A program made the position numbers and the translations under genes. A model generated the notes under the pieces. The model was not told the origin of the DNA. It saw only the letters and a list, made by a program, of their open reading frames with translations, and searched no databases. A stretch of DNA of 64,000 nt from NCBI GenBank assembly GCA_965261085.1, contig OZ253442.1:1216001-1280000 (forward strand). Reading direction: 5' to 3'. The DNA comes from a bacterium (GTDB lineage: Bacteria > UBA8248). The first letter of the stretch is position 1. Every line of letters starts with the position of its first letter. Positions 743 to 61,497 of this stretch are shown here, one piece after another.

Positions 743-877
743 CCCCCTCCCCCCCTCTTCCACTTCACAAAATCCAGCCACCACGTCTCTCTTACGGCGT
801 TCCCCAGATTAGGCCGCATGGCCGCGCTTCGGGGGGTGCCGTAGGCGGCTTCCTCCCAGGCGTCCGTGGTGGGAATG
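743..877 (-). repeat. Diverged copy of the 3' tail of the gene at 2646..3353
   Basis: Aligns without gaps to 2641..2775 (offset 1898) with 11 mismatches in 135 bp by manual count. It encodes IPTTDAWEEAAYGTPRSAAMRPNLGNAVRETWWLDFVKWKRG. Confidence 0.95.
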
Positions 878-951
878 ACGGAGTGTCTTCCAAGCCACCA
901 GTGGCCAGCAAGCCCCCGCCTCCCCCGCCTCCCCCGCCGAAGAAGAGGTGA
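877..951 (+). pseudogene. Proline-rich C-terminal gene remnant (DGVSSKPPVASKPPPPPPPPPKKR*)
   Basis: Short frame with no start codon, abutting the tail duplicate. It contains a 9-bp CCCCGCCTC repeat and ends at TGA 949-951. Confidence 0.35.
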
Positions 952-1181
952 GGCGCTGATTCATGGGTTGGGCGGCTGATACTCAGGGAAGCAGTGCAAG
1001 TGGTGTCGTCGAATGTTTTGCTCAGAACCACGAGGTGGATTTGCTTCAAAAGCGTGTCGAGAATATAAAACATCTATGGCCTTCTGAAAAAGACAACTGC
1101 CACCTTCGTCAAAACATGCAAGGAGGTCAATGAATAGTAAAATGCCGCCGGAAAGTTAGTATTTGACGGGAGCACGCAGGG

Positions 1182-2537
1182 ATGGAAAATCTTCAGGAAC
1201 GCGCAGAACGTTTGGCTGAACAATTTACTGAAAAGGCGCGTAAACCGTTAGTCATCGAGTTTGCAGGAGTTCCCAAAGCGGGTAAGACGACCACGCTGTC
1301 ACATGTGCAGACGTTTCTCAAGCGTTGTGGCTTTCATACTGATGTCGTAGTCGAACGTGCTTCAGTTTGTCCGATTCGCGATAAAAAGCACGCGAATTTC
1401 AACATCTGGACCGCATGTACTACACTCGCTCAGATTTTGGAAAAAACACAAAATCCGCCACGGCCTGGCGACCCGCAGATTCTTTTTCTTGATAGAGGGC
1501 TTTTCGACTCTATCTGTTGGTTGACCATGATGGAACGGCTCTCTCGCTTGCGCTCGGATGAAAAAGCTTGCGTCCAGCAATTCCTCACCATTGATGATTG
1601 GAGGAAGCGTATCTCGGCTGTTTTTGTGATGCTTGTTTCTCCGAAGGACGCGATGAAACGCGAGCAAGGAATAAGGCCTGTGAATGCGAAAGAGGGCTCC
1701 ATAATGAATCTTGAGATCCTTGGGAAGATTAGGGAAGTGAACGAACAATGCGCCAAGCAACTTGAGAGGGATTTTCGGATTTATCGAATCAATACGTCTA
1801 GTGGTGCTGCCGGCCGAGATCAAGAATCTACGGCGGAGACGGTCACCGATGTCATTCTCGGTCTGATAGAAGAACAGCTCGCGGAAAATATACTTTCATG
1901 CTCCAAGGAAACCGTAAAAGAATTCTTTGGGGACAAGAGTTTTGTTGATGCTTCCAAAGCGAATGAACTGGCGCGGTATTACGAAGAATCTGACGATAGC
2001 AATTTCAAGACCAGAGAAGAGGTGGAAAACGATGCTTCTCGCGTCCAGGCGCTTCCCGTGGTGGTTGTTCGGAATGCGGACGGGGATGTACTTCGTCTTC
2101 GCCGACGTGAAAATAGGGGCGATAAGCCCCTTCATGATAAGATCGTGATCTGGGCCGGTGGACATGTTCGATGTGAGGATGCCGTCAACGGCGCTCCACT
2201 TATAAATTGCGCCATACGGGAACTCGGAGAGGAGTTGCGACTCCAACTCGAATCCTCATCGATGAAACTGATTGGTGCCTTGTACTTCGACAATGGTGGA
2301 AGTACTTCGAAGCATGTTGCAATCGTTTATGAATGGCGCGCACTCAAAAACGACGTTTCGGTGGTGCTGAGTAGAACCGAATTCTTTGAGAGGCGCGGAA
2401 CGTCTCTTAGCGGGAGTTTCGCGTCTGTCGATAAACTCGTTGAAGATGTTAAAAACAAAAAACTTATAGAACCTTGGTCTATTGAGTTGGTACGAGAATA
2501 TTTAGCGAAAGATAAATTTGAGCCACGTCTGTTTTGA
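1182..2537 (+). CDS. Thymidylate-kinase-like P-loop NTPase fused to a C-terminal NUDIX hydrolase
   Basis: Walker A GVPKAGKT, a dTMP-kinase-like FLDRG motif, and a NUDIX box GGHV...AIRELGEE. Lower GC. Confidence 0.8.
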   Translation: MENLQERAERLAEQFTEKARKPLVIEFAGVPKAGKTTTLSHVQTFLKRCGFHTDVVVERASVCPIRDKKHANFNIWTACTTLAQILEKTQNPPRPGDPQILFLDRGLFDSICWLTMMERLSRLRSDEKACVQQFLTIDDWRKRISAVFVMLVSPKDAMKREQGIRPVNAKEGSIMNLEILGKIREVNEQCAKQLERDFRIYRINTSSGAAGRDQESTAETVTDVILGLIEEQLAENILSCSKETVKEFFGDKSFVDASKANELARYYEESDDSNFKTREEVENDASRVQALPVVVVRNADGDVLRLRRRENRGDKPLHDKIVIWAGGHVRCEDAVNGAPLINCAIRELGEELRLQLESSSMKLIGALYFDNGGSTSKHVAIVYEWRALKNDVSVVLSRTEFFERRGTSLSGSFASVDKLVEDVKNKKLIEPWSIELVREYLAKDKFEPRLF

Positions 2538-2645
2538 ACGGTTAATCTCTGTTGTGAGCAGTCGAAGTTGAGTAGACTAAATTGCAATAGTTTCCTGCGC
2601 GCACAATTTGGCGGTTATCGGCAGATTCTTTTTCTCTACCCCCCC

Positions 2646-3353
2646 TCACCCTCGCTTCCACTTCACGAAATCCAGCCACCACGTCTCTCTTACTGCGTTC
2701 TTGAGATTGGGCCGCATGGCGGCGCTTCGGGGGGTGCCGTAGGCGGCTTCCTCCCAGGCGTCCGTGGTGGGGATGGTGGGGTCTTCCATGTCGTAGAGCG
2801 CGATGATGCGGCGCGCGCTCCTCTTCGTCTCCTGTATTTCCGCCTCCGCCGTCGCGCCTCCGGTGGCGGCGGTCTCTAACTGATACACGCGGCCCCGCGT
2901 CATGCCTTGGACCTCATAGAGGCGGTCCAGGTGTTCTTCGCGGTACCAGGCGAGCATCTCCTCTTTTAGCTCCTCGCCCTCGGGGTTGGGGCACACCATG
3001 TAGAGATAGGGCGAGTCGTAGCGGTGCGGCTCGCCGATGGAGACTTCCAGGCTGTACACGGCGCGCTCGGCGTTTTTGATGAAGGCCATGCACTCTTGCG
3101 TCCAGGGGGAGGGGTTGTCCCTCGATTCGCGGTAGTAATCGCTCTCAAACGCCGCGAGGCTGTCCCCCTCGAAGGTGCAGAGAATGTTGTGGTGCGCGCT
3201 GGCGTCCACCGCGTTGTAGCGATAACCCACGCGAAAGCCGGGGCCGTCCATCCTGTCCGTCGAGTGCTCGCAGTTGTGCCACTTTCTGAATTCCTCGTGG
3301 TTCTCGGGGTCGACGTTCAGCCAGATGGCGACGAGCGCCTGGGTCGGGTTCAT
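2646..3353 (-). CDS. Tandem EthD/DUF4286-like dimeric alpha-beta barrel protein
   Basis: Two repeats of the WH/WYxxEH motif (FRKWHNCEH, LAWYREEH). It lies directly downstream of the HpaB-family gene. Confidence 0.65.
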   Translation of the reverse strand: MNPTQALVAIWLNVDPENHEEFRKWHNCEHSTDRMDGPGFRVGYRYNAVDASAHHNILCTFEGDSLAAFESDYYRESRDNPSPWTQECMAFIKNAERAVYSLEVSIGEPHRYDSPYLYMVCPNPEGEELKEEMLAWYREEHLDRLYEVQGMTRGRVYQLETAATGGATAEAEIQETKRSARRIIALYDMEDPTIPTTDAWEEAAYGTPRSAAMRPNLKNAVRETWWLDFVKWKRG

Positions 3354-3366
3354 CCCAAAAATCTCC

Positions 3367-4794
3367 TTATTCGATGCCTGCGAGGCGTTTCGCGTAATCG
3401 ATGGCGGGGCCGATATTATGCTCGCGCCAGATGGTCATCTTCTCGGCCTCGATGCTGCCTTCCGCGTGAATCGCCAGCACGGCCTGATAGCCCGCGAAGT
3501 CGGACGCCGTAATCTCCGCAATAAGGTTCATGAGCCTGAGCCGCTCTTCCGTCGAGGCGGAGGGGGCGGCGCCCAGGTATTTGTCGATGAGTTCGGCGAG
3601 TTTTGGGTCGTCCAGGTCCTCCGCACTCGGGCCTGTGACGAGCAGTCCGCCCGCGATGTCCTGCACCCATGCGAGGGCCTGGTGGTAGCCCGTGGCGAAG
3701 TGGAGCTTCGCGATGTTGATAATCTCCGCATTCGGCACGGCGACGCCGTCCGTGACCTTGCATTCCCTGGCGGCCTCGCGCGTCATGCCCCGGCAAATCT
3801 GCGCGTAGGAGATGAGCTTGGCGAGCTTATCCCGCACGTGGCCCGCGCGGAGGATGCCGTTGTACTCCGCCATCAGGTGTGACGCGCCCACGAACAGGTC
3901 CACCAGCGGCAGCTTGTAGCTCACGGCGGTGAAGCGGTGGAACTCAACGAAAGTCTTGGCCAGTGGCCCGGCCATGTCCCCTTCTCCGTTTAGGAACACG
4001 CGCTCCCAGGGGACTTTTACGTTATCGAAAATGGTGAGCGTCTCCATCATCTTGTGTTTGCTTGAAATCGGGTTTTCAAACTCCGTTCCTTTTCTGCCGC
4101 CATACCCGCTGGCCAGCATGGTGAGGCCTGCCGCATTGGCCGGCACGGCGCAGGCCACGGCATACGCCTCATCGCCTTCTCGCATGTTTCTCGTCGGCAG
4201 CACGATTATTTCGTGCGCATTCGTGGAAACGGAGGTGTGCGCCTTGGCCCCGCGCAGGGTGACGCCTTCGTCATCCTGGGCGACGACGCGGACGTAATAA
4301 TCGGGATGCGCCTGATCGCCGGGGCCTTTGCCCCTGTCTCCTTTCACGTCGGTCTGGGCGACGGCGACGGCCAGGTCGTTGTCCCGGCAGTGATCGTGGA
4401 ATTTCTGGACGCGGGGGAGGTAGTCCGTGCCTAAATTCTTATCCATGTAGGAGGCCAGCAGACGTAAGGCGAAGAGCGCGTCGGTTCCGATTTCCTTGAT
4501 GAGTACGACGAGCGTTCCCCCTAAGGCCGTGGCGCGCTCGATGAGGGCGCTGCGCTTTAAGAGATCGTCCGCGCATTCGGGGATGTGGTAGTAGCGCGAG
4601 TAGGGGCCGTTCGGACCTTCGACCAGGGCGAGTTCGGGCTCGTCTTCGGCCATCTCGTAGTCGATGGCGGCGTGATCGACCGCCACGCCGATGACGGGGT
4701 GTGCGGTTACGTCCTCCACCCGCTCGCCCCGGTAATAGACCACGCGGCCATCGCGCAGGCTTTGTTTGTATTCACTCGGACTCATGAGCGGCAT
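3367..4794 (-). CDS. 4-hydroxyphenylacetate 3-hydroxylase / 4-hydroxybutyryl-CoA dehydratase family flavoprotein
   Basis: Motifs YKQSLRDGRVVYYRGERVEDV, AQTDVKGDR, GAKAHT and IFDNVKVPWERVF. Confidence 0.85.
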   Translation of the reverse strand: MPLMSPSEYKQSLRDGRVVYYRGERVEDVTAHPVIGVAVDHAAIDYEMAEDEPELALVEGPNGPYSRYYHIPECADDLLKRSALIERATALGGTLVVLIKEIGTDALFALRLLASYMDKNLGTDYLPRVQKFHDHCRDNDLAVAVAQTDVKGDRGKGPGDQAHPDYYVRVVAQDDEGVTLRGAKAHTSVSTNAHEIIVLPTRNMREGDEAYAVACAVPANAAGLTMLASGYGGRKGTEFENPISSKHKMMETLTIFDNVKVPWERVFLNGEGDMAGPLAKTFVEFHRFTAVSYKLPLVDLFVGASHLMAEYNGILRAGHVRDKLAKLISYAQICRGMTREAARECKVTDGVAVPNAEIINIAKLHFATGYHQALAWVQDIAGGLLVTGPSAEDLDDPKLAELIDKYLGAAPSASTEERLRLMNLIAEITASDFAGYQAVLAIHAEGSIEAEKMTIWREHNIGPAIDYAKRLAGIE

Positions 4795-4958
4795 GGCGCT
4801 TTCCTCCCGGTCGTGGCCACACCCTGCGGGCGGGCGTTTTTCATGTTAGAGAGTGGACAGGGTATCTTCTTTCGCGCTTCGGTGAAACGCCGCCCACGGG
4901 GCGTGAGCAAAAAATGAGGGCCGCCCACGCTTTTTTCACGCGGACGGCCCGGCAAACT

Positions 4959-5228: not shown

Positions 5229-5429
5229 GAAGACGGCATTGATGGGTGAACGGGTTTGCGCCTCTCATGAGACGCCCACTCGTCCATAAAATAACAAAAC
5301 TCCGGGCAATCGTCATCTAAAAGAGAGGTTTTCCTCTCAGGGACCCGGACTCGTTTTCCCCCTTCAAAAATAGGGCGTTCATGAATTTTTGCGAAACGGA
5401 AAACCGGCGTTTTTCGCCGAAGGAAATCG

Positions 5430-7180: not shown

Positions 7181-8052
7181 CGAAAGCCCCCTTCATGCCC
7201 GAACGTCCCCCCGGGAAGCCGGCGACCTGGTTCACCGAGTACCACGGTCCGGGAACGGGCATCACGATGAAGGTGTTGCGCACCCTGTATTCGGCGAAAA
7301 GCGCGTTTCAGGAAATCACCCTGGTGGAAACCGAGGATTTCGGGCGCGTCCTCCTGCTCGACGGCGTCATCCAGACCACCGAGCGCGATGAGTTCATCTA
7401 TCACGAGATGCTCACACACGTGCCCATGTGCTCGCACCCTGCGCCCAGGAACGTGCTCATCATCGGCGGCGGGGACGGCGGCTGCGTGCGCGAGGCGCTC
7501 CGGCACGAGACGGTCGCGCGCGTCACGCTCGTTGAGATCGACGGGATGGTGGTGGATTGCTGCCGCGAGTTTTTGCCGTCCATCGCCGGAAAGTTGGGCG
7601 ACCCCCGGGTGGAGATAAGAATCGAGGACGGGGTGAAATTCATCGAGGGCCATGAGAAGGCGTTCGACGTCATCCTGGTCGATTCCACCGACCCGGTCGC
7701 CATGGCGAGTCCGCTGACTAAAACCTCCTTTTTCCGGGCGGCTAAGCGCGCCCTCGCGCCGGGCGGCCTGTACGCCGCGCAGACGCAAGGGCCCGTGTTC
7801 GAGGGCCACATGATGGGGAGGATCACGAGGCGCATCAGGAGGGTGTTTCCGGGCGCATCGACTTATCTGGCGAACGTGCCGACGTACCCTGGAGGGATAT
7901 GGTCGTTCGCCCTCGCGCCGAAATCAGGGAAAGCGGACGCCCGCGCCAAGCCAAGGGAGCTGCCCGCAGGCGAGAATACCCACTATTACTCCCCCGAGGT
8001 CCATGCGGCCGCATTCACGCACCCTCCCTACGTGGCGGAGATTTTGAAGTAA
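7171..8052 (+). CDS. speE: Polyamine aminopropyltransferase (spermidine synthase)
   Basis: [26 protein letters not shown] and DSTDP motifs. Confidence 0.93.
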
Positions 8053-8909
8053 TGGCCCGCATGGCCCACCCCCGTTTTCTTTGCGCTGAGAGCGCCTTTG
8101 AACCAGCGCGCACCGTTCTCCTGGGATGCCCTTTCGATGAGACGGCGAGCTTCAGGCGGGGCGCGCGTCTCGGCCCCGGTGCGATACGCGAAGCGTCCGA
8201 TTGTCTCGAAACATACAGCCCGCATCTCGATAAGGATCTGGAAGACGCCGCCCTGTGCGACTTGGGCGACGTTGATTTCGCCTCCGATGATACCCAAGCC
8301 GTTCTCGATTCCATCCAGGCCGAGGCGAGGGAGATATTCCGCGCAGGCAAGCGTCCCGTATTCCTGGGCGGTGAGCACCTGGTGAGCCTGCCCCTTGTGG
8401 AGGCGGCGCTTGAAGTATTCCCGGGTCTGGCCGTTTTCCAGTGGGATGCGCACGCGGATTTGCGCGATGACTATCTGGGCGAAAAACTCTCGCATGCCTG
8501 CGTCATGCGGCGCATCCTGGATCTGGAGGGCGTCGGCCCGCTCCATCAGTTCGGCGTCCGCTCCGGCACGCGCGATGAGTTCGAATGGATGAGGGCGAAC
8601 GAGACGCTGCGCCCCCTCACGCCCGAAGGGGTCGAATCGGCCCTGGAAGAAGCGGGCGACCGCGCCATATATCTCACCCTCGACGTGGACGTCATAAACC
8701 CCGGCGAGATGCCCGGAACCGGCACTCCCGAACCCGGCGGTCCCGGCTTCGATGCGATTATGGATTGCATCTCGGTTCTCGACGCCTCGGGCGCGCGCAT
8801 CATCGGCGCCGACGTGGTGGAACTCGCCCCTGAATTGGACCCCTCCGGCGCAAGCGCCGTCGCCGCCGCGAAGCTGGTGCGTGAACTCGCGCTGGTAATG
8901 GGGGCGTGA
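8052..8909 (+). CDS. speB: Agmatinase (ureohydrolase)
   Basis: GGEHL, DAHAD, DVDVINPGEMPGTGTPEPGG and DVVE motifs. TAATG coupling to speE. Confidence 0.92.
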   Translation: MARMAHPRFLCAESAFEPARTVLLGCPFDETASFRRGARLGPGAIREASDCLETYSPHLDKDLEDAALCDLGDVDFASDDTQAVLDSIQAEAREIFRAGKRPVFLGGEHLVSLPLVEAALEVFPGLAVFQWDAHADLRDDYLGEKLSHACVMRRILDLEGVGPLHQFGVRSGTRDEFEWMRANETLRPLTPEGVESALEEAGDRAIYLTLDVDVINPGEMPGTGTPEPGGPGFDAIMDCISVLDASGARIIGADVVELAPELDPSGASAVAAAKLVRELALVMGA

Positions 8910-9009
8910 AGCGGGCGGCGTCATTCACTCGGCTGCACCACGTTTCCGAGAGGCGCGCGCAGCACTGTCATCGCTTGCAGCGCGTAGCGCTATACATTAC
9001 GATAACGCT

Positions 9010-9282
9010 ATGAAGATCAGGCGCAAGGGTTTGCGGTCGCTCCACGAACGGGACGACCCGGCGCGGTTGCCTGCCAATCTGGCGCCGCGGCTCCGGCGCA
9101 TCCTGTTTCGGCTGCAGGAGGCGACGCGCCCGGGTGATGCGGATGCGCCGGGCTTCCGGCTGCATCCACTGAAGGGCGACCGGGCGGGCGATTGGAGCGT
9201 GCGCGTTTCCGGCAACTGGCGCGTGGTGTTCCGCTTCGAGGACGGCGAAGTCGTGGACGTGGACCTGATCGACTACCACTGA
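9010..9282 (+). CDS. higB: HigB-like (RelE/ParE superfamily) toxin
   Basis: PGFRLHPLKGDRAGDWSVRVSGNWRVVFRF...DLIDYH. Confidence 0.9.
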   Translation: MKIRRKGLRSLHERDDPARLPANLAPRLRRILFRLQEATRPGDADAPGFRLHPLKGDRAGDWSVRVSGNWRVVFRFEDGEVVDVDLIDYH

Positions 9283-9300
9283 CGGGAAGGAGGATGAGCG

Positions 9301-9615
9301 ATGAACGAGAGCGGAGGCGAACGTGTAGGACCGATGCTGAACCCGCCGCATCTGGGCGAACTGATCCGAGAGAGTATGGAAGAGGTCGGCTGGAGCGTCA
9401 CCGAGACCTCGGCTCGCCTGGGCTGCGAGCGCGGGACGCTTTCGCGCCTGCTGAACGGAAAGGCGGGCGTGTCCGCCAACATGGCGATCGCGCTGGAGGG
9501 CATCGGTTGGGGAACCGCCGACCACTGGATGCGCATGCAGGCGAGCTACGAGCTGGCGCAGGTTCGCAAGGAGCGGTCCAAGGGGACACGGTTGGCTGAT
9601 GTGAGGTCAGCGTGA
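9301..9615 (+). CDS. higA: HigA-family HTH antitoxin
   Basis: MLNPPHLGELIRE...RGTLSRLLNGKAGVS...WMRMQASYEL. Confidence 0.9.
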   Translation: MNESGGERVGPMLNPPHLGELIRESMEEVGWSVTETSARLGCERGTLSRLLNGKAGVSANMAIALEGIGWGTADHWMRMQASYELAQVRKERSKGTRLADVRSA

Positions 9616-9646
9616 GCCGGCGTTGCAAAGGCGATGTGGAACGGGA

Positions 9647-9838
9647 GGCAGCCCCGAACCCGGTGGCCCGGGCTTCGATGCGATTATGGATTGCATCGGT
9701 ATTCTGTGGACTGCAGGTGTTCGCATCGTCGGCGCCGACGTGGTGGAACTCGCTCCCGAATTGGACCCCTCCGGCGCAAGCGCCGTCGCCGCCGCGAAGC
9801 TGGTGCGTGAACTCGCGCTGGTAATGGGGGCGGAGTAG
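9647..9838 (+). repeat. Diverged copy of the speB 3' tail (including a stop codon)
   Basis: 9647..9832 aligns without gaps to 8721..8906 (offset 926). There are 23 mismatches by manual count, all in the 5' part; the last 75 bp are identical. Confidence 0.95.
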
Positions 9839-9878
9839 AGCGCGGGTCCGGCGTCTATTTTTTTGGGGGATCATAGAA

Positions 9879-10415
9879 ATGTCCAGGCAATACGACCATG
9901 TTTGTAGTGCCAACCATGGTCGACGAGCAAAAGACCCTAGTTCAAGGAGACGAATAACATTGGAAAAAATTGACAAACTTACGCAGTTGCTCAATAACAA
10001 TGAGCCACTCAGCACTGAATGGCGAAGGGAGCTTTATAGTGCGTTCAGTCGGCGAGTCGTAGGAAAGATGCTTGACGACGGGGTTAGCTATGGCAAAGCA
10101 TCAGACGCACCTGAGTTCTATAATCAAGATTACCAAGCCTTTCGTGGCCACCTCAGGAAAACGGACCAGGACCTTGGTTGGCAATGTGATAGTGTCAGAG
10201 ACGCCTTCTCTGGGTACCTGAAAACAGGAGAAATACCAGCCCCCTATTTCCCAATGCGTATCGCTATCCTGCTAAGGAAGGCCAAAGAGACTGAACGCGA
10301 AAAGATGTTCCTGACTGCTTGGTGTCGTCATTTCGGAACAGGCAACCCGTCTTCCGGTAAGTATTACAAACTCTCGGAACGCCTGCAGAAGCTAAATTCT
10401 AAGACCTCAAACTAA
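9879..10415 (+). CDS. Hypothetical protein (lower-GC islet)
   Basis: 178-aa ORF with atypical composition; no family recognised. Confidence 0.6.
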   Translation: MSRQYDHVCSANHGRRAKDPSSRRRITLEKIDKLTQLLNNNEPLSTEWRRELYSAFSRRVVGKMLDDGVSYGKASDAPEFYNQDYQAFRGHLRKTDQDLGWQCDSVRDAFSGYLKTGEIPAPYFPMRIAILLRKAKETEREKMFLTAWCRHFGTGNPSSGKYYKLSERLQKLNSKTSN

Positions 10416-10477
10416 AAAATTCCGTAAATATAAAATTTTAGTTGCACCCAAGATACTCACCATGAGAGCGAATTTGC

Positions 10478-11488
10478 TTATGAGCGCAATTTCTTCCTGA
10501 ACGCGTTTGTGTCGAAGTCGAACCAAGGCGGTCGTTGAATTTTGAACCGCGCCTCGCGCACGTTGTATACAGTGTCGGGTTTGGCTTCGAAGAGAACCTG
10601 CCTGATGATCGACAGCGCAGCGCCGTACGCGTCAGCGGCGTTGGATAGCGTTATGTCACCGCCATACCGGATGTCAGTCGCGTCGTCTCCGGACAGGATT
10701 AGGGCCAGCTTTACGCGATCAATGGCTTCAGCGCCCAGACTCTCTGCCCGATCTGCCAGTGCTGAAAGATCGTGGGTATAAGGCGGCGTCTGTCCTTTTC
10801 GCCGAATTAGGAGCTTCAGCGCTTTCTCCGTGGCCTGCGACGCATCCCACGCGGCCGAGCGCAAGCAGGCGTCGTTCCGTTCACAAAGATTCCTAGCGCT
10901 GCTTTGAATATCTGTGCGAACCGACCCAGCTAATTCCGCGATGCTTAAATTCTCATTATGCACCAGTGCCCGGACGTCGAAGCCTATGCTCCGAACCAAT
11001 TTTGCGGTCTCTAAAGCCTCTTTTCGGACAACGTCCAGTCCTATGCCTGATAACCCATCGACCACGCCTCTGCTCTGAATCCAGCTAAGTGGGTCTTCTT
11101 CTGCTTGGACCGATGCAGGCCATCCAATCCAGACCATATTCGGCTCATCTGCGGATATCTTGAAACGCTTGGGTACCTGCATGGCGAAAGGTGTTCCATG
11201 AATAAGTAACATCGACACAAAGACCCCGGTTTCGTCGTTATCGACAAAGTCGCCGTAGCGGTCGCGATACCAGTCCTCTATGATGAACAGAAATGCTCCG
11301 TGCGCCACGCTGCGGTAAAATGTTTCGAAATCGGAAAATTCCATCGCCGTATCGCACAGAACTTCGAAAGCCTTCAATTTGCGGGCTGAAATCGGTATGT
11401 TCGCCTGACTAAGTGCCCCGTCGATTTTCGGGAGTTCTTCGTTCAGAAATGCAGCGATCTCCTTCCAGTTACTTATGTCGTCGGACAC
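10478..11488 (-). CDS. HEPN domain-containing protein
   Basis: C-terminal AAWDASQATEKALK...YTHDLSAL HEPN signature. GGAGG RBS before the GTG start. Confidence 0.8.
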   Translation of the reverse strand: MSDDISNWKEIAAFLNEELPKIDGALSQANIPISARKLKAFEVLCDTAMEFSDFETFYRSVAHGAFLFIIEDWYRDRYGDFVDNDETGVFVSMLLIHGTPFAMQVPKRFKISADEPNMVWIGWPASVQAEEDPLSWIQSRGVVDGLSGIGLDVVRKEALETAKLVRSIGFDVRALVHNENLSIAELAGSVRTDIQSSARNLCERNDACLRSAAWDASQATEKALKLLIRRKGQTPPYTHDLSALADRAESLGAEAIDRVKLALILSGDDATDIRYGGDITLSNAADAYGAALSIIRQVLFEAKPDTVYNVREARFKIQRPPWFDFDTNAFRKKLRS

Positions 11489-11710
11489 GGATTTGACCTC
11501 CTCTCAATTGCCAGACTCATTCAAGGCATCTCCTGTGCTTCCAGAATAACAGGAATTACGGCGTGATGAAGGTCGTGAGCTCATGCCCACCCCGCAGTTC
11601 ACGAACGTGTGTTTGACCCCGCCGAGCACGGGATAGTACGCTTGGTTGCTGCGTCCTGCTCCCGGGCGGGGCCGGTTCCCACCACGCCGCCAAAGCGCAA
11701 GGAGGTCCTC

Positions 11711-15199: not shown

Positions 15200-15622
15200 G
15201 TGGCGTTCGAAGATGGCTTCGTGATCGAAACGACGAGGCGGACGGATATTCTGGACATCACGCCGCAGGTGGAGCGCGCCGTTTCGAAAAGCGGGATATC
15301 AAGCGGAATCGTCCTGGTGTTCACGCCCGGCTCGACGGCGGGTTTGACGACGATAGAGTATGAACCGGGCGCAATTTCGGATCTGAAAGACGCGATTGCG
15401 CGAATCGCGCCCGAGGGGATGGCCTATGCGCACGATGCGCGCTGGGGGGACGGGAACGGTTTCTCCCACGTCCGCGCCGCCCTGCTGGGGCCGAGCCTCT
15501 CTTTGCCGCTCAGAGAGGGCGCGCTCGTTACCGGAACCTGGCAGCAGATAGTCCTGGTCGATTTCGACAACCGCCCGAGGAGCAGGCGGGTGGAAATCCA
15601 GATTATCGGGGATGCGTCCTAG
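15200..15622 (+). CDS. yjbQ: YjbQ family (UPF0047) protein
   Basis: GSTAGLTTIEYEP, NGFSH and GTWQQIVLVDFD motifs. Confidence 0.9.
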   Translation: MAFEDGFVIETTRRTDILDITPQVERAVSKSGISSGIVLVFTPGSTAGLTTIEYEPGAISDLKDAIARIAPEGMAYAHDARWGDGNGFSHVRAALLGPSLSLPLREGALVTGTWQQIVLVDFDNRPRSRRVEIQIIGDAS

Positions 15623-15624
15623 TC

Positions 15625-15780
15625 AATCCGCGCCGGACGCGCAACCGAGGGCGTGTCGACCGGAAATAAAGATACCCGGACTCTTGGAGCGAAGTATTAA
15701 TAAATCCGCGCCGGACGCGCACCCGTTGGCGTGTCGACCGGAAATCGAGATACCCGGAGTCTCGCAGCGAAGTATGAAAG
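15625..15780. repeat. Two diverged tandem 78-bp units between convergent genes
   Basis: AATCCGCGCCGGACGCGC...GGCGTGTCGACCGGAAAT...GATACCCGGA...AGCGAAGTAT starts at 15625 and again at 15703. Confidence 0.9.
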
Positions 15781-44398: not shown

Positions 44399-44422
44399 GA
44401 AGGCTTGAGCCTGGAGAATCCG

Positions 44423-45028
44423 ATGAACGAGGAGATATTCACCGGCATCATCTCCCCCGCAGGCATTCCCAGAATACCGGATGAGGCTCTGAAACCCAGA
44501 CCCGAGACGTTAGAGGGTGCGACTCTCGGTATCCTGGAGAACAACAAGGAATTCTCCGACTGGGTGCTGGACAGGGTGCGCGACCGGCTTCGGACGTCCT
44601 TTGAAATCACCGAAGTCGTCCAGCGCCGCAAGCACCATCTCGCCCAGTCGGCATCCCCTGAAATCCTGGAGGAGTTGAACGCGCGCTGCGACGCCGTTCT
44701 GGTCGGCGTGGGGCACTGAGGCTCCTCCACGTCGTGGAGTGTCCGCGACGCGGTGGAGCTTGAGAGGCTGGGAAGCCCCGCCTGCGTCATCGTGAGCCGG
44801 GGCTTCAGCCATAGTGGCCGCGCGATAGCGAGAAGGCAGGGCTACGGCGGCCTGCCCATCGTCGAGATGGACCATCCCCTCGCTGCACCTGAGAGAGAGG
44901 CGCTTCACCCCAAGGCGGACGCCATAGTGGAAGAAGTCGTCCACGCGCTCACGGCGGATGCGGGAGAGCTCCAGGCCGAATACAGGGTGAAGAAATTCAA
45001 AGGCCCCCGGAATCTTTGCCCGAAATAG
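44423..45028 (+). CDS. UGSC-family selenoprotein (in-frame TGA 44717-44719; UGSS variant)
   Basis: ORFs 44405..44719 and 44753..45028 are in frame and read CDAVLVGVGH-TGA-GSSTSWSVRDAVELERLG. A hairpin follows the TGA. Confidence 0.82.
44725..44758 (+). promoter_or_regulatory. Candidate bacterial SECIS hairpin
   Basis: CTCCAC[GTCGTGGA-GTG-TCCGCGAC]GCG-GTGGAG, a nested stem just after the TGA. Confidence 0.55.
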
Positions 45029-46487: not shown

Positions 46488-46775
46488 GTGATGGCGAAGA
46501 CGAAGACCAAGCCATGGGATGCGGCGGAGCACCTTGAGACCAAAGAGGATATCGCTCTCTATCTCGAGGCGGCTTTCGAGGATGGCGATCCGGCGCTCAT
46601 CGCGGCGGCATTGGGCGACGCTGCGAGGGCCAAGGGGATGACAAAAGTCGCCGCCGAAGCCGGTTTGGGCAGGGAGAGTCTCTACAAGGCGCTCTCGCCC
46701 AAGGGGAATCCCGAGTTCGCCACCATTCTCAAGGTCATTCGCGCCCTGGGTTTGCGGCTTCGCGCATCCGCTTGA
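46488..46775 (+). CDS. Addiction-module antidote protein (HTH)
   Basis: WDAAEHL...ALGDAARAKGM...RESLYKALS...GNPEF. Confidence 0.9.
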   Translation: MMAKTKTKPWDAAEHLETKEDIALYLEAAFEDGDPALIAAALGDAARAKGMTKVAAEAGLGRESLYKALSPKGNPEFATILKVIRALGLRLRASA

Positions 46776-51796: not shown

Positions 51797-53098
51797 ATGA
51801 GACTTAAGCCTAAACCGCTTGAAATTGGAGATGACACTGGTTTTGGTGAGCACGATCTCTTTGAGCGTAAAGATTTTGCCGAACGTCTCACCAATCTTGT
51901 TAAAAATATAGAGGATCCGACGGTCTTTTTGTTGGATGATTCTTGGGGATCTGGAAAAACCACGTTCCTGAAACAGTGGGTAGGGGAGTTGAGGCGCAGC
52001 GGTATTCCTGTTGTTGAATTCGATGCTTTCGCTCGGGACTATCAAGCCGATCCCTTCATTGCTCTGTCGGCAGAGATATTCGCTGCTGCCCAGAAAGTAA
52101 AATCGTTAGAAGAAGCTACACGCGAGGATTTTATTGAGAGAGCGAAATCACTAGGGAAAGCCTCCCTCTCCATCATTGCTCAAATCGCGATAAGCAAAAT
52201 CACCTCGGGCGAATTGTCAATTGAAGATGTCAAGAAGCTGGGCGAAACACCTATGAATGATGTTTCGGCCATTATTGAGGAACGCTTGAAATCAGCGGAA
52301 GCCGATGCAGAGCTTCTGTCTTCCTTTCGCGAAACACTTGAGAAACTGGCGAATGGAATGTCAACCGAAGAAGGAGTGCCGCTCGTCTTGATTGTTGATG
52401 AACTGGATCGGTGTCGTCCCTCTTTTGCAGTGGAACTCATCGAAAAGGTCAAGCACGTTTTCGCCGTGCCGGGCGTTCACTTCGTACTGTCGGCTCATCT
52501 ACCACAGTTGGCCAAAATCTTTCAGAATACTCACGGCCTTGGCAAAGATGAACAGGCTCTCGTCTATCTCGAGAAGTTCTACGATGTGCGGGTTAAATTT
52601 CCCGCTCCACTATATTACAGAAATACCACGACAAAGAGTTATATTGAGCACCTATGGTTTAAACTAAACTTGCCGTCTATGGATCTAAATAATGGGAGTG
52701 TTAATTTTCGTGAGTCACTAGAAAGTGTTTTCCAAAATCGTCGGGTTTCGTTGAGAACGGTAGAAAAAATCATGACGAATCTCGCCTTGTATTATGCGGG
52801 GAATTCTGCAGGAGGTGTAGAGAATGTTCTCTTCGTTACGGGCGTCTGTATTATTCGGCATAGCGATCCGGAACTGTATGAGAAAATCGCATCATCAACA
52901 GTTACATGGGACGATATCAATGGGTTCTTCGGGTTTGATAGTTGGTCCCAAGACAAGACCTCTGCTCTATTTCGAGAAAACTGGCGTCTTATATTTGGCC
53001 AGGAAGTCAGTTCTGACCTGATGAGTTTTTCAGGTAGTAAAGGAGATGCAAATCAATTGCTCTCCGAAATTACAAAGCAAATTGACAACTTCTATTAA
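51797..53098 (+). CDS. KAP-family P-loop NTPase
   Basis: DDSWGSGKT, IVDELDRCRP and YLEKFYD motifs. Lower GC. Confidence 0.88.
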   Translation: MRLKPKPLEIGDDTGFGEHDLFERKDFAERLTNLVKNIEDPTVFLLDDSWGSGKTTFLKQWVGELRRSGIPVVEFDAFARDYQADPFIALSAEIFAAAQKVKSLEEATREDFIERAKSLGKASLSIIAQIAISKITSGELSIEDVKKLGETPMNDVSAIIEERLKSAEADAELLSSFRETLEKLANGMSTEEGVPLVLIVDELDRCRPSFAVELIEKVKHVFAVPGVHFVLSAHLPQLAKIFQNTHGLGKDEQALVYLEKFYDVRVKFPAPLYYRNTTTKSYIEHLWFKLNLPSMDLNNGSVNFRESLESVFQNRRVSLRTVEKIMTNLALYYAGNSAGGVENVLFVTGVCIIRHSDPELYEKIASSTVTWDDINGFFGFDSWSQDKTSALFRENWRLIFGQEVSSDLMSFSGSKGDANQLLSEITKQIDNFY

Positions 53099-53106
53099 CC
53101 CCTTGA

Positions 53107-54819: not shown

Positions 54820-55617
54820 TTATGAAACCTTTATCATCTGTTTCGCCTCATCGACGCTTGCGATTTTACGGCCCATCTCGCCCGCGATTCGCGCGATGCG
54901 CGCGACGTGATCGGCGTTATCCCCCAGCTCGCCGGGGTGGAGATAGGGCTCATCCTCGGTGCCCACGCGCACGTGGCCGCCGTGCATCACCGCCATCGTC
55001 TGCATGTGGATGTGGGTGGGGCCGGTGGCGCTCGCGATGTATTTGGAATCCGCCGGCAGGTTCGCCACGCGGTGTAAGAACTCGCTCAGCGAGGGCGGCG
55101 ACCACGCCCCGCCCGGACGCCCGAAGAAGCACGTCATGAGAACGGGGGGCTCCAGCAGCCCCTTCTGGAGCAGATCGTCGATCATCCACGTCTCGCCCAG
55201 GGTGAAGACCTCGAACTCGGGCTTCACGTTATAGTCCTTGCAGAGCCGCATCATCTCGGCGAGTTCCTCGCGGGGGTGGAGCATCATCACGTCGCGCGCG
55301 ATGAAGGCCATGTTGTGCGCGCCCACGGCGACGGACATCATCTCGGGATGGTTCTTCACCACTTCTTTTCTCTGCTCGACCGTCTGGGTCGAGATGCCGT
55401 ACTGGAGCATGATGTTGCACCGCTCCCGGATGGCCTTGGAATGAGACTCCCAGGCGTCGTAGTTCGTGGGGGGCGCATGGATGTGGGCGATGGACGCGCC
55501 CGCCTGATAGGCCTTTTCCACCGAATCGGCGAGGACTTGTGAATCCGCGAAACGCTGCGGCACGCCCTCGTGCATCGAGGTGTCCGCCGCGCAGTTTACG
55601 ATCATCAGTTTTTCCAT
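54820..55617 (-). CDS. Beta-keto acid cleavage enzyme (BKACE/DUF849)
   Basis: AGASIAHIH, KPEFEVF and GHVRVGTED motifs. Confidence 0.88.
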   Translation of the reverse strand: MEKLMIVNCAADTSMHEGVPQRFADSQVLADSVEKAYQAGASIAHIHAPPTNYDAWESHSKAIRERCNIMLQYGISTQTVEQRKEVVKNHPEMMSVAVGAHNMAFIARDVMMLHPREELAEMMRLCKDYNVKPEFEVFTLGETWMIDDLLQKGLLEPPVLMTCFFGRPGGAWSPPSLSEFLHRVANLPADSKYIASATGPTHIHMQTMAVMHGGHVRVGTEDEPYLHPGELGDNADHVARIARIAGEMGRKIASVDEAKQMIKVS

Positions 55618-55647
55618 GAATGGCTCCTCCCGATGCCTATAATATGT

Positions 55648-56451
55648 TTAGTTCATCCCCAGTATTTTCCTGGCCTCATCCACCGTGGCCGGGTCGCGTC
55701 CCAGTTCGTGGCCGATTCTCGCGATGCGCGCGACCAATTGCGCGTTGTTCTCGCACAGGACGCCCTCGGTGTAGTAGGGCTCATCCTCGGTGCCCACGCG
55801 CACGTGGCCGTCCCGGATGATGGTGACGGTCTCGAGCGCGTTCGAGGTCGGACCCGCCGAACTGCACGAGAACACGCAGCCCTCCGGCAGGTGGTCGATG
55901 CGGTGGATGAGTTCGCGCAGCGTCGCGGGGGCGTAGAAACCGCCCGGCCAGCCGAAGAAGATGGTGATGACGACCGGGTCCGCCACCAGCCCCTTGTCCA
56001 GCAGCCACTCCAGGTTCCACAGGTGGCCCAGGTTGAAGCATTCGAACTCGGGCTTCACGCCGTTGTCGTTGAACAGGCGCACCTGGTCTTCTATCTCCTG
56101 GCGGGAATGCTCGACGAGCAGGTCGGCGTCGACGAAGGCGAAATCATGCGAGCCCAGGGCGATGGAAGCCATATCCGGCTTCAAGTGGATGATCTTCTGG
56201 CGGCCCGGCAGGCCCATCGCGGCGATTCCGAACTGGATCAACACCTCGGGGCAGGCTTCGCGCACCGCGTTCGTGAGCGGCTCCCAGCTTTCGAGCTTCA
56301 TCGGGATGCCGTGGATGTGGGCGATGGCCGCGCCCGCCTCGTAGCTTTCCTTGATTTCCCTGGCGACGGCCTCGGGCGTCTGGAGCCGCTTGGGGACGCC
56401 CGCGTGCTTCCGGCTGTCCGCCGCGCAGTTGGTGATGATGAGTTTCTCCAT
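55648..56451 (-). CDS. Beta-keto acid cleavage enzyme (BKACE/DUF849), second paralog
   Basis: AGAAIAHIH, KPEFECF and GHVRVGTED motifs. Confidence 0.88.
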   Translation of the reverse strand: MEKLIITNCAADSRKHAGVPKRLQTPEAVAREIKESYEAGAAIAHIHGIPMKLESWEPLTNAVREACPEVLIQFGIAAMGLPGRQKIIHLKPDMASIALGSHDFAFVDADLLVEHSRQEIEDQVRLFNDNGVKPEFECFNLGHLWNLEWLLDKGLVADPVVITIFFGWPGGFYAPATLRELIHRIDHLPEGCVFSCSSAGPTSNALETVTIIRDGHVRVGTEDEPYYTEGVLCENNAQLVARIARIGHELGRDPATVDEARKILGMN

Positions 56452-57262: not shown

Positions 57263-57329
57263 CTTTCTCCGAAACCCCCGGAGGAGCGAGTTGCTCCCCC
57301 GGGGGCCGTATCCCTTAAAAATTTCGCCT

Positions 57330-58250: not shown

Positions 58251-58263
58251 TCCGCTTTCCCTG

Positions 58264-59409
58264 TTATTTCTGCATCTTCATCATCGCCTTGAAGCGCTTG
58301 ATCTCCTTGGCGAAGTCGAAGTTTTTCGCCCGCTTGATGACCTCGTTGCGGTCGAAGTTGTTGACCTCGTCGATCAGCTCGTTCGTGTAGAGGGATTCCA
58401 CCTGCTCTTTGGTCAGCGTCTTGTCCAGGCCCACGAACTTCACGTACTCGGCCCACTCGCCGTCGTGGTGCGCGCCGAACTTGTTGATTTTCTCATCATC
58501 CAGGCGCAGCTTGGGGGCGCGCGACTTGAGCACCTTGATCATCCGGGCGGTGGCCTGCGCGTCGCTCATGCCCTTGGGTTTTGATTCGGGATAGAGCACC
58601 CAGTGGATTTTAAGAGAGGCTTCCGGGTTCGTGTAGAAGAAGAGGCTGCCCTTGGCCAGGCCGCGCAAAAAGCCGACCACGGTGTCGCGGTTGCTCGCCA
58701 GGAACTTCTTGTTGATCCACACGACGTTGCCGAAGAGGTTCTGCGTCCATTCCTTCTGGTAGGGGATCATGTCGAACTTGAATCCGGCCGCCTCCGCCAG
58801 GGTGTACTGGATGTCCACGTTCGCCCAGGCGTCCACGCGGCCGAGCTTCATGGCGGCGGCGGCTTGGGAGGCCGGCCCGACCGGAAGATACGTCACCTCC
58901 TGCTTGGCGGCGGGGATGCCGCAGGTCTCGAGCGCTTTTCTCACGAAGATGGGCCCTGAGTCGCGTTGGCTCATGACGCCCACTTTTTTGCCCTGCAAGT
59001 CGCAGACGGATTTTATCTTGCTGCCCGGCGGCACGGCCACGCCGTCGGCGTAGATGGCGTCTCTGTTCAGGATGTAGACGCCCATGACGGGAGGCATCTT
59101 CTTTCCGCGCGCGGCGCGGAAGAGAATCGGGATGGGCCTCGGCAGGCCGACGTGCGTGCGGCCCGAGAGGACCCAGCCCATCGCCTGGGCTCCGCCCTGG
59201 GCGGCGACGAACTGCGCGTCCACGCCGCTTTCCTGGTAGTAGCCGAGAAAATTTCCGATCCACAGGAAGGAAATGCCCGGGTTGAACAGCGGATTCGCCA
59301 TCGTCACCTTGATGTTCTTGAGTTTCATGGCGGCTGTGGACGGGGCCGGCGCCGCGATCAACAGCGCGAACAGGGCCGCGACGGCGATTACGAGTCGAAA
59401 CTTTTTCAT
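58264..59409 (-). CDS. NMT1/THI5-like ABC substrate-binding protein, copy 1
   Basis: Signal peptide, LGYY, DLQGKKVGV and FLRGLAKG motifs; 381 aa. Confidence 0.88.
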   Translation of the reverse strand: MKKFRLVIAVAALFALLIAAPAPSTAAMKLKNIKVTMANPLFNPGISFLWIGNFLGYYQESGVDAQFVAAQGGAQAMGWVLSGRTHVGLPRPIPILFRAARGKKMPPVMGVYILNRDAIYADGVAVPPGSKIKSVCDLQGKKVGVMSQRDSGPIFVRKALETCGIPAAKQEVTYLPVGPASQAAAAMKLGRVDAWANVDIQYTLAEAAGFKFDMIPYQKEWTQNLFGNVVWINKKFLASNRDTVVGFLRGLAKGSLFFYTNPEASLKIHWVLYPESKPKGMSDAQATARMIKVLKSRAPKLRLDDEKINKFGAHHDGEWAEYVKFVGLDKTLTKEQVESLYTNELIDEVNNFDRNEVIKRAKNFDFAKEIKRFKAMMKMQK

Positions 59410-59457
59410 GCGAGTTCTCCTTACTTGGGAATTATGAGTCAGGAAAATATCCTCTTT

Positions 59458-59508
59458 CTAGTCCTCTACTATAGCGACCGGGCGCACCCATTCGCCGCTC
59501 GCGCTCTT
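59458..59508 (-). repeat. Diverged copy of the cyclase 3' tail
   Basis: Encodes KSASGEWVRPVAIVED* versus KDASGAWVRPVAIVED* at 60730..60780. Confidence 0.9.
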
Positions 59509-59553
59509 TGGGTCTTCATTGCTCAGGCCGGTTGTTTCCATTGCGCTTGTCTT

Positions 59554-60699
59554 TTATTTCTGCATCTTCATCATCGCCTTGAAGCGCTTGATCTCCTTGG
59601 CGAAGTCGAAGTTTTTCGCCCGCTTGATGACCTCGTTGCGGTCGAAGTTGTTGACCTCGTCAATCAGTTCGTTCGTGTAGAGGGATTTCACCTGCTCTTT
59701 GGTCAGCGTCTTGTGCAGACCCACGAACTTCACGTATTCGGCCCACTCGCCGTCGTGGTGCGCGCCGAACTTGTTGATCTTCTCATCCTCAGGGCTCAGC
59801 TTGGGCGCGCTCGCCCTGAGCACCTTGATCATCAAGGCGGTGGCCTGCGCGTCGCTCATGCCCTTGGGTTTTGATTCGGGATAGAGCACCCAGTGGATTT
59901 TAAGAGCGGCTTCCGGGTTCGTGTAGAAGAAGAGGCTCCCCTTGGCCAGGCCGCGCAGGAAGCCCACCACGGTGTCGCGGTTGTCCGCCAAAAACGTCTT
60001 GTTGATCCACACGACGTTGCCGAAGAGGTTCTGCGTCCATTCCTTCTGGTAGGGGATCATGTCGAACTTGAATCCGCGTGCGCGGGCCAGGGTGTATTGA
60101 ACGCCCACGTTCGCCCAGGCGTCCACGCGGCCGAGCTTCATCGCCATGGCCGCCTGGGAGGCCGCTCCGACGGGAAGATACGTCACCTCTTGCTTGGCGG
60201 CGGGGATGCCGCAGGTCTCGAGCGCTTTTCGCACGAAAATGGGTCCTGAATCGCGCTGGCTCATGACGCCCACCTTCTTGCCCTGCAAATCGCAGACGGA
60301 TTTTATCTTGCTGCCGGGTGGTACGGCTACGCCGTCGGCGTAGATGGCGTCTCTGTTCAGGATGTAGACGCCCTTGACGGGAGGCATCTTCTTCCCGCGC
60401 GCGGCGCGGAAGAGAATGGGGATGGGCCTCGGCAGGCCGACGTGCGTGCGGCCCGCGAGCACCCAGCCCATCGCCTGGGAGCCGCCCTGGGCGGCGACGA
60501 ACTGCGCGTCCACGCCGTTTTCCTGGTAGTAGCCGAGGAAATTTCCGATCCACAGAAAGGAAATGCCCGGGTTGAACAGCGGATTCGACATCGTTATCTT
60601 GATGTTCTTGAGTTTCTTGGCGGCCACGGACGGAGCCGGCGCCGCGACGATGAGCGCGAACAGGGTTGCAGTGGCTATAGCGAGTCGAAACTTTCTCAT
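59554..60699 (-). CDS. NMT1/THI5-like ABC substrate-binding protein, copy 2
   Basis: 381 aa, near-identical tandem paralog of 58264..59409. Confidence 0.88.
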   Translation of the reverse strand: MRKFRLAIATATLFALIVAAPAPSVAAKKLKNIKITMSNPLFNPGISFLWIGNFLGYYQENGVDAQFVAAQGGSQAMGWVLAGRTHVGLPRPIPILFRAARGKKMPPVKGVYILNRDAIYADGVAVPPGSKIKSVCDLQGKKVGVMSQRDSGPIFVRKALETCGIPAAKQEVTYLPVGAASQAAMAMKLGRVDAWANVGVQYTLARARGFKFDMIPYQKEWTQNLFGNVVWINKTFLADNRDTVVGFLRGLAKGSLFFYTNPEAALKIHWVLYPESKPKGMSDAQATALMIKVLRASAPKLSPEDEKINKFGAHHDGEWAEYVKFVGLHKTLTKEQVKSLYTNELIDEVNNFDRNEVIKRAKNFDFAKEIKRFKAMMKMQK

Positions 60700-60729
60700 G
60701 GGATGCGCCCTCCTGAAAAATTTCTCGTC

Positions 60730-61497
60730 CTAATCTTCCACAATCGCGACCGGACGCACCCATGCGCCGCTCGCGTCCTTCACGTTGATCGGGAAACAGC
60801 AGATCTTGAAGCCGTGCGACTTCGGGATCGCCCCGATGTTGGTGATTTGTTCGATTTGGAAATACTCGCGCCGTCTGCCCAGAATGTGGTGGCAGGGCAT
60901 GAGCGATTCGCGCTTGCCCGCCTTGAACTCGGGGACCTGGAAGCTGAAGGGCCTGTCGAAACCGAAGGCGTCGATGGCGATGACGCGAACGCCGCGATCC
61001 AGGAGATACTCCGTCGCCGGGATGCTCATGCCCGGATGGAGTTCGGGATAATCGGGGCTGTCGCGATGCTCGTCGGTGCCCGTCCACAAGAGCACGATGT
61101 CGCCTTCCTTGACTTCGTAGCCGATTTTGGCGAGACATTCCTTGATGTCTTCTTCGCTAATCCAGTCGCCCGTCTTCTTGTGCCTCAGATCGAGCACCAC
61201 GCCGTCGCCGTAGCACCATTCGAGCGGCACCTTGTCGATTTTACGGGAGGGTTCGCCCGCCACGGTGGGGCCGTAGTGCCAGGGAGCGTCCATGTGGGTA
61301 GCCGAGTGCGTGGAGACGGTGACGAACTCCGCCGCTCCGCCCATGCCGTCGTGCAACTCCTCCACCGGGATGCCCCAATTCTTGGCCGCGCGTCCGCCGA
61401 ACTCTTCATGGTCGAGATAGGTGACCTCGGGCGGGCGGGGTTCGTTCGAGCCGTTCATGATGGGGGTGCTCAGGTCGATGAATCGCGTAGCGCACAT
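60730..61497 (-). CDS. Cyclase family (kynurenine formamidase-like) metal hydrolase
   Basis: HSATHMDAPWH, IDAFGFD, QIE and RPVA motifs. Confidence 0.9.
   Translation of the reverse strand: MCATRFIDLSTPIMNGSNEPRPPEVTYLDHEEFGGRAAKNWGIPVEELHDGMGGAAEFVTVSTHSATHMDAPWHYGPTVAGEPSRKIDKVPLEWCYGDGVVLDLRHKKTGDWISEEDIKECLAKIGYEVKEGDIVLLWTGTDEHRDSPDYPELHPGMSIPATEYLLDRGVRVIAIDAFGFDRPFSFQVPEFKAGKRESLMPCHHILGRRREYFQIEQITNIGAIPKSHGFKICCFPINVKDASGAWVRPVAIVED

Follow-up and report, generated by a model that had tools for sequence, protein, structure and literature searches.

How does foreign DNA come to lie between two closely spaced genes when both genes remain intact and no recombinase accompanies it? This question is raised by a 64,000-nt stretch (hereafter the window) of the genome of an uncultured sponge-associated bacterium of the GTDB lineage UBA8248 (assembly GCA_965261085.1, contig OZ253442.1, positions 1,216,001–1,280,000), parts of which are also present in sponge metagenomes. 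In the window, an 'EthD-like' gene, speB and a putative cyclase gene are each followed downstream by a second copy of their own 3′ end. The whole genome (G000; one contig of 4.27 Mb) and those of same-genus relatives (labelled G002–G022) contain further loci at which foreign DNA lies between a conserved gene A and its close neighbour B, with the A/B junction, mostly the last 37–343 nt of A, on both sides. As the junction stands on both sides, gene A is whole and gene B retains its native upstream sequence, including the ribosome site and start. On balance, these loci are probably insertion slots that lack an integrase and lie where genes are tightly packed; they would arise by junction-duplicating insertion and then be turned over by homologous recombination. 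Gene gain and exchange without a recombinase seem to be displayed here with unusual clarity and across the whole genome.

Duplicated gene tails in the window and across the genome

The three direct repeats described in the first-pass annotation of the window were recovered by a repeat search, and all are gapless. The copies are in register with the last 45, 62 and 17 codons of the three anchor genes and end 5, 0 and 15 nt beyond the stop codon, respectively. The accompanying genes (a P-loop/NUDIX gene, higBA, AbiV, a HEPN gene and a gene for a substrate-binding protein, SBP) were matched by family scans, in which 29 open reading frames (ORFs) were compared with Pfam and 38 further gene calls with NCBIfam; the gene calls were home-made, and their start codons are approximate.

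The first anchor gene (2646–3353, minus strand) is an ORF of 235 aa downstream of hpaB (3367–4794), with orthologues of 70–91 % identity in the loci of 16 relatives. Its 'EthD-like' label goes back solely to a sub-threshold DUF4286 match. The gene-attached tail P (2641–2782, minus strand; last 45 codons plus 5 nt) recurs 1898 nt away as an orphan copy A (743–884, minus strand), which is 142 nt long, 90 % identical (self-BLAST E ~1e-47) and devoid of the stop codon. Cassette 1, which separates them (885–2640), has a GC content of 0.48 vs 0.63 in the anchor gene and carries a 451-aa gene (1182–2537, plus strand) with weak P-loop and NUDIX matches; of its three orthologues, two (from G011 and G015) have a NUDIX match above the cut-off. 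Beyond copy A lies cassette 2, an AbiV gene recognized by family scans (1–641, plus strand, with its start at window position −285). A third tail copy C of 67 nt was found outside the window by genome self-BLAST (genome 1215308–1215374, window −692 to −626), where it directly precedes an ankyrin gene. In the direction of the anchor gene, the layout reads EthD-like gene, NUDIX cassette, copy A (142 nt), AbiV, copy C (67 nt), ankyrin gene. Since an ankyrin gene stands directly behind the EthD-like gene, overlapping its end, in G017 and G020, copy C and the ankyrin gene represent the native junction. The third copy therefore identifies the EthD-like gene as the head of a two-cassette stack that ends at the native ankyrin neighbour, in agreement with the stacking originally claimed for such cassettes.

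The second anchor gene, speB (8052–8909, plus strand), encodes an agmatinase of the arginase family and is the last gene of a speD/argDC/speE/speB cluster, whose argDC belongs to the pyruvoyl-ArgDC type according to the family scan. The 62 codons of its tail (P, 8721–8906, plus strand) recur at a spacing of 926 nt as orphan copy D (9647–9832, plus strand), a repeat of 186 nt with 88 % identity (E ~1e-59). The cassette enclosed (8910–9646, plus strand) consists of higB (9010–9282) and higA (9301–9615), as identified by family scan. Further accessory genes follow copy D at 9879–11488, namely a 178-aa hypothetical gene (9879–10415, plus strand) and a 336-aa HEPN-domain gene (10478–11488, minus strand), neither of which had a tblastn match in the loci of the 16 relatives. 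Metagenome evidence, here and below, consists of contigs from four public runs rather than raw reads. In contigs from three of these runs, summed depth over 9201–9600 (higA and the end of higB) is ~1,460–1,840 vs 20–140 for neighbouring core genes, and loose contig ends lie near higBA at ~9147/9193 and 9562, with one copy of the module in the genome under study. The high depth and the loose ends at higA therefore point to the presence of the module in many other contexts in those communities.

The putative cyclase gene (60730–61497, minus strand) requires a different explanation. Its tail repeat (60715–60780) matches 59443–59508 over 66 nt with 79 % identity at a spacing of 1272 nt, and the orphan tail lies between two NMT1-type SBP genes (59554–60699 and 58264–59409, a pair spanning 58264–60699 on the minus strand). 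The two SBPs share 91.6 % protein identity over their full length, the 1.28-kb units align end to end, and the tandem form also occurs on one contig of G022. Initially regarded as a third cassette carrying an extra SBP allele, this locus is, judged from its sequence, a simple tandem duplication of a 1.28-kb gene unit with the breakpoint in the cyclase tail at the unit edge, and not a foreign cassette.

A genome-wide survey was based on repeat pairs on the same strand, 250–10,000 nt apart, 40–400 nt long, at least 78 % identical and of low copy number; 39 pairs were kept out of 173 that met the four criteria other than the low-copy filter. A tail pair was defined by one copy holding a stop codon and the other lying downstream, and the expectation was derived from a probability of 0.141 that a random copy holds a stop codon. 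By this measure, a gene 3′ tail is accompanied by a downstream orphan copy in 19 of the 39 pairs vs 5.5 expected (P=2.7e-7). The mirror arrangement, a gene head with an orphan copy upstream, applies to 10/39 pairs in all (P=0.04) and exclusively to six, one of which belongs to the EthD stack. The proposed comparison of 3′ tails with 5′ ends thus yielded a strong excess of tails, with heads barely enriched. The remaining pairs comprise ten without a label, two tails with the other copy upstream and two paralogue heads. The 19 tail pairs correspond to 18 loci, of which two are doubtful (small tandem ORFs at 1751726 and a copy inside a giant gene at 3254863), and the MmeI locus falls short of the tail rule by 13 nt; the number of loci is taken as ~17.

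The anchor genes at these loci include those for peptide deformylase (Def), NFACT, a formate-dehydrogenase-like protein, nitronate monooxygenase, TauE, a cupin, an AMP-binding enzyme and a second cyclase. The cargo, whose GC content is mostly below that of the anchor gene, includes PD-Lambda-2_B and PDC-M36A as well as RTX, LysR, alpha/beta hydrolase, ankyrin, DUF4399 and unknown genes; it is not specific to defence, and the initial picture of an accretion of defence genes is not supported. Repeat lengths range from 46 to 343 nt, varying even at one gene, and the repeat ends no more than 15 nt past the anchor stop codon in 12/16 scorable pairs. A distinct arrangement was seen at a DUF169 gene, the tail of which (genome 70287–70651, L033:3287–3651) is repeated in a cargo-less stretch of 286 nt with an internal period of 143 nt, right before two ankyrin genes.

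Empty sites and cargo turnover in related genomes

The comparison of the same loci in relatives, which are few and kin to one another, revealed both situations anticipated in the first-pass annotation, namely empty sites and other cargo behind the same tail. The DUF7676/ADH junction is contiguous in four of the five genomes searched (G008, G006, G004 and G021), and in the genome under study it is interrupted by an insert of 1.27 kb; a duplication of 112 nt brackets this insert and extends 4 nt into the ADH gene. The TauE/amidohydrolase junction, at which the copies extend 10 nt into the amidohydrolase gene, is contiguous in three of five (G006, G008 and G004), the insertion being common to the genome under study and G021. 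The AMP-binding cassette is missing from G008. As in gene-gain hotspots, different cargo without mobility genes was found between the same conserved flanks in related genomes.

At the EthD-like slot, a tail copy ahead of the ankyrin gene is present in the loci of 8/16 relatives (G008, G004, G021, G014, G002, G006, G011 and G012). The NUDIX cargo also stands behind the EthD-like gene in G008 and G011, where it has the same far end (window ~874–906), and other cargo in the relatives includes GmrSD, a Gp49-like gene, DUF6338 and extra ankyrin genes. In the case of speB, a second match to the last 55–65 nt of the gene lies 0.26–0.8 kb downstream in 8 of the 22 same-genus genomes searched. The flanks of the copy are homologous in G002, G013, G015, G012 and G017, in all of which a gene for a small membrane protein starts 3 nt after the copy. 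The cargo is a 207-aa NYN-domain gene (PADLOC HEC-09) in four of these, with the exception of G012, whose copy lies only 257 bp downstream. The speB-tail duplication of these five species is one old common event. G013 additionally contains a further, decayed speB-tail copy followed by a flank matching that behind the real speB of the genome under study and then by higBA.

The Def locus offers the closest view of exchange. A copy of the def tail is present in all five relatives searched. One cargo, C1 (two unknown genes, 1.5 kb; genome 1984222–1987500, corresponding to L040, and L075 in G008), is ~100 % identical between the genome under study and G008, vs 90 % for the def genes themselves, and the identity of C1 begins ~20 nt past the stop codon. 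This difference points to a very recent transfer between species. C1 is located behind the real def in the genome under study and behind an orphan tail, T′, downstream of another segment in G008, G004 and G013. The simplest derivation of this arrangement would be recombination between a real and an orphan tail, combined with a recent interspecies exchange of C1. At the Def locus and in the speB array of G013, the tails behave as reusable homology, as expected from the earlier proposal that they serve as landing pads.

Origin of the slots and other features of the window

Slots may be created by homology-anchored or illegitimate recombination, in which the incoming DNA of a relative would pair with gene A and its other end would join illegitimately inside the recipient's copy of the tail of A. 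Only products with both A and B intact would survive. Once formed, a slot appears to be long-lived, with gene A and the orphan tail plus B offering homology for RecA-type recombination, which would stack cassettes, swap them between species or delete them between tail copies. Homologous-recombination turnover is the better-supported half of this model; the slots themselves may open by homology-anchored entry or by a local duplication-insertion. Recurrence, the 3′ bias and the reusable tails agree with the first proposal. Entry by single crossover or homology-facilitated illegitimate recombination (HFIR), a further part of that proposal, is plausible but inferred, and one recent case, the AMP-binding locus, looks locally duplicated.

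The divergence of the copies was examined for signs of a foreign origin. Pooled over 15 scorable pairs (OsmC left out), the 159 differences between tail and copy fall on codon positions 1/2/3 as 36/29/94, and 77 of the changed codons are synonymous and 53 are not. The enrichment in synonymous changes reported initially is thereby upheld, and the pattern looks more like selection than like mere decay. The accompanying claim that the copies are selected alleles imported from relatives is not proven, because evolution of the functional copy after old, shared duplications, as well as allelic recombination, can give the same third-position bias as a foreign tail. With relatives as outgroups, a branch polarity test placed 22/37 and 39/69 changes at the third position, with the bias on both the gene-tail and the orphan branches. 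The test is not decisive, as old duplications in the outgroups (Cupin) misassign changes and only one to five outgroup rows were kept per locus. In a variable patch of ~30 nt, copy D has the allele of G008, the closest relative, and the functional speB is G006-like. The DUF7676 gene tail ends like that of G021 and its orphan copy like that of G008; at FDH, the orphan copy resembles G006 in its left part. These mosaics at speB, DUF7676 and FDH fit recombination with relatives. A donor allele on the gene-attached tail with the recipient allele on the orphan fits speB and DUF7676, but neither AMP-binding nor the last 100 nt of speB.

Several observations weigh against homology-anchored entry or limit its reach. 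The AMP-binding pair is 98 % identical, with G000-specific bases in both copies, and the last ~100 nt of speB are identical in P and D, with unique shared bases; for both, a local duplication or subsequent gene conversion is a better fit than an imported tail of foreign origin. Some duplications are old, the Cupin copy being present in G008 and G006 and Def copies in 5/5 relatives, and duplications that predate the species splits confound the codon-position and polarity tests. The 'empty' TauE site may reflect a secondary deletion between the repeats, because the more distant G021 has the insertion. The ~17 loci are a count from one genome, and the insertion steps are all inferred, none having been observed.

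The principal alternative, possible though we consider it doubtful, is a local duplication-insertion without a homologous anchor, in which template switching or staggered-break joining duplicates 46–343 nt of the recipient's own junction, selection retains the events that leave both genes intact, and later divergence and allelic recombination separate the copies. The shared bases at AMP-binding and speB favour it, as does the entry of the duplicated stretch into gene B by 4–10 nt at two loci, which resembles a target duplication; in addition, orphan-branch changes are spread over the codon positions (4/1/2 and 2/2/2) at the two loci for which the nearest relatives have empty sites. However, a randomly placed window should take the head of B as often as the tail of A, yet the repeats end within 15 nt of the stop codon of A in 12/16 pairs and heads are barely enriched; allele patches that match other species and the 59 % of pooled differences found at the third position also count against it. 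A Campbell-type single crossover, in which a circle of tail plus cargo loops out between tail copies in the donor and RecA then integrates it into the corresponding gene tail of another cell, is unlikely. It would explain recurring units such as T′ plus C1 (Def), decayed tail plus flank plus higBA (G013) and copy A plus AbiV, and direct repeats of 46–343 nt are adequate substrates, but the origin of the first copy would remain unexplained. The order of the EthD stack, with the long copy by the gene and the short one by the ankyrin gene, is by our reasoning unlike that expected from a crossover into the short copy. The excised or circular forms suggested earlier were sought in the contigs of the four public runs, where no joint skipping or circularizing a cargo was found; this is weak evidence, because contigs drop rare forms.

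Site-specific integrative elements classically leave direct repeats of the 3′ end of their target gene, which is itself restored, and repeats of precisely this kind occur here. The slots could accordingly be remnants of elements whose integrases have been lost or act in trans, similar to the integrase-less cis-mobilizable elements that tandem accretion leaves behind, and the 22 tyrosine-recombinase-like stretches in the genome lend some credit to this view, which is nevertheless improbable. It has to accommodate ~17 target genes, repeats of 46–343 nt that differ even at one gene, the lack of a common core or cassette end and cargo that is often a single gene of 1–2 kb, and no integrase was found at the same sites in the slots of the genome under study or in the loci of 16 relatives. 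A strain-chimeric assembly that places two alleles in tandem is very improbable indeed. The genome is judged to be a metagenome-assembled genome and the samples contain multiple related strains that differ in depth, but equivalent structures were found in genomes of other species that had been assembled independently, the copies enclose foreign cargo and not the whole region in a second allele, and public-run contigs, from a run that is possibly the source sample, match 1–786, 844–2682 and 9812–11601 without differences. Homology-anchored slot opening with subsequent turnover by recombination remains the preferred explanation.

The searches for known machinery extend beyond the absence of a recombinase from the window, first noted from the sequence alone and borne out by the Pfam and NCBIfam scans, which detected no integrase or transposase among their 29 and 38 ORFs. 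Integrase, transposase and resolvase families were absent from 129 ORFs in the slots of the 16 relatives' loci, and integrase families from 88 ORFs at 15 other loci of the genome under study, where two transposase-related matches stood alone, an IS1595 DDE domain (OsmC locus) and DUF772 (MmeI locus). The 22 matches in the genome came from a search with PF00589 (Phage_integrase); the nearest lies ~99 kb from the window, and none is near the tail loci. All-against-all comparisons disclosed no shared repeat motif among 34 repeat copies from 17 loci, and no shared cassette end among the 36 ends of 18 cargo segments, beyond chance matches of up to 18 nt. An integron was rejected on the grounds that there is no IntI-type recombinase beside the arrays and no common attC-type site, the repeats and cargo ends sharing no motif. 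A diversity-generating retroelement is contradicted by the lack of a reverse transcriptase family among the cargo ORFs and by mismatches that are not adenine-specific (adenine in the orphan copy at 1/14, 3/23 and 7/14 mismatches). Repeats of 46–343 nt are far too long for transposon target duplications, and a transposase-related ORF was present at only 2/15 other loci. Dispersed repeats of 50–300 nt, with the look of repetitive extragenic palindromic sequences or miniature inverted-repeat transposable elements (for example L044:4346–4679, L035:4935–5071 and L046:2800–3270), occur in tens of copies in this genome, 1.1 % of which they occupy, and in all relatives searched. They lie in or less than 600 nt from 8/18 loci, but not at cassette boundaries, and are absent at the three window loci, and were discarded as the mechanism.

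The remainder of the window holds several features of separate interest. The UGSC (seleno)protein family is matched by two adjacent ORFs, its N-terminal half at 44405–44719 and its C-terminal half at 44753–45028; they probably form a single selenoprotein gene with readthrough of an in-frame TGA. Matches to (seleno)protein families of the ArsS type and the GrdB type were also obtained nearby. An HI1420-type antitoxin gene (46488–46775) and a gene for a KAP-family P-loop NTPase matching PADLOC PDC-S20 (51797–53098) are located between transport operons. A 78-nt unit occurs twice in tandem with 74 % identity in an intergenic region (15593–15748), and two tandem paralogues of beta-keto acid cleavage enzyme (BKACE) genes at 54820–56451 share several blocks of 62–65 nt at 71–80 % identity.

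Relation to known recombination systems

Like integrons, the slots form arrays of small, often single-gene cassettes with a recurring separator, and toxin–antitoxin and defence cargo is common in both. Unlike integrons, they have no IntI, attI or attC, and their separators are the tails of local genes, differing from locus to locus. A bolder proposal, for which our confidence is low, is that orphan housekeeping tails serve as recombination sites that are portable and specific to a locus, equivalent to attI/attC but dependent on RecA. By this means, small tail-plus-cargo cassettes might be gained, stacked, excised and passed between species of the symbiont lineage at dozens of operon junctions; if true, uncultured bacteria and archaea would have a general and so far unnoticed path for gene flow that needs no dedicated recombinase. 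Integrative and cis-mobilizable elements that use gene 3′ ends share with the slots the direct repeats of the target 3′ end, the restored gene and possible tandem arrays, but differ from them in that no integrase was found in the slots of 17 genomes, which have no defined core and repeats of variable length.

The part of PMC2568036 used here describes, for clusters of tandem paralogues, a 'unit of evolution' that begins in the 3′ portion of an ORF, crosses the intergenic region and ends in the 5′ portion of the following ORF. As at the slots, the recombining unit is the gene junction and not the gene; the paralogues in question are tandem lipoprotein genes, nearest to the SBP duplication, and not foreign cargo.

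About half of bacterial gene-gain hotspots lack recognizable mobile elements and are turned over by recombination in the flanking core genes, according to the sections consulted of a 2017 study (PMC5635113; see also PMC2884548). Variable cargo between conserved genes, the lack of an integrase and turnover by flank recombination are common to those hotspots and the slots. As set out in the same sections, the model does not require a duplicated gene tail, nor would one follow from it; at the loci described here, the junction is present twice, which marks the opening of a slot in a compact operon and adds internal homology. The opening of new slots inside compact operons is left unexplained by a double-crossover model, and the loci described here show what would be its scar, which later offers additional homology by which cassettes can be stacked, swapped or deleted. 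Should this be general, it would provide a simple sequence signature for recombinase-free cassettes, often encoding defence or toxin–antitoxin functions, in uncultured genomes and a testable model of the tolerance of operons to insertions.

The closest parallel is sequential displacement by HFIR at polymorphic-toxin loci, which, in the portion of PMC5361080 drawn on here (citing Jackson 2009, Poole 2011 and Koskiniemi 2014), covers type VI secretion effector–immunity arrays of Vibrio cholerae, C-terminal displacement in Rhs proteins and orphan modules of contact-dependent inhibition systems, and likens such arrays to integrons. In those arrays, a conserved anchor is located upstream, new modules enter beside it and displace older material downstream, with orphan 3′ fragments as the result and without an integrase; the conserved upstream anchor, the downstream orphan 3′ fragments and the lack of an integrase recur at the loci described. 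On the basis of the same portion, the differences are that the anchors here are housekeeping genes (speB, def, formate-dehydrogenase-like and NFACT, among others) that are kept whole without replacement of a C-terminus, that the cargo is unrelated to the anchor, and that ~17 loci occur in one genome. A limited literature search, a thin basis for novelty, returned no report in which duplicated tails of housekeeping genes delimit cassettes. New in comparison with these systems are the use of housekeeping anchors, each of which is preserved, the duplicated junction that marks the opening of a slot, and the number of loci affected within one genome.

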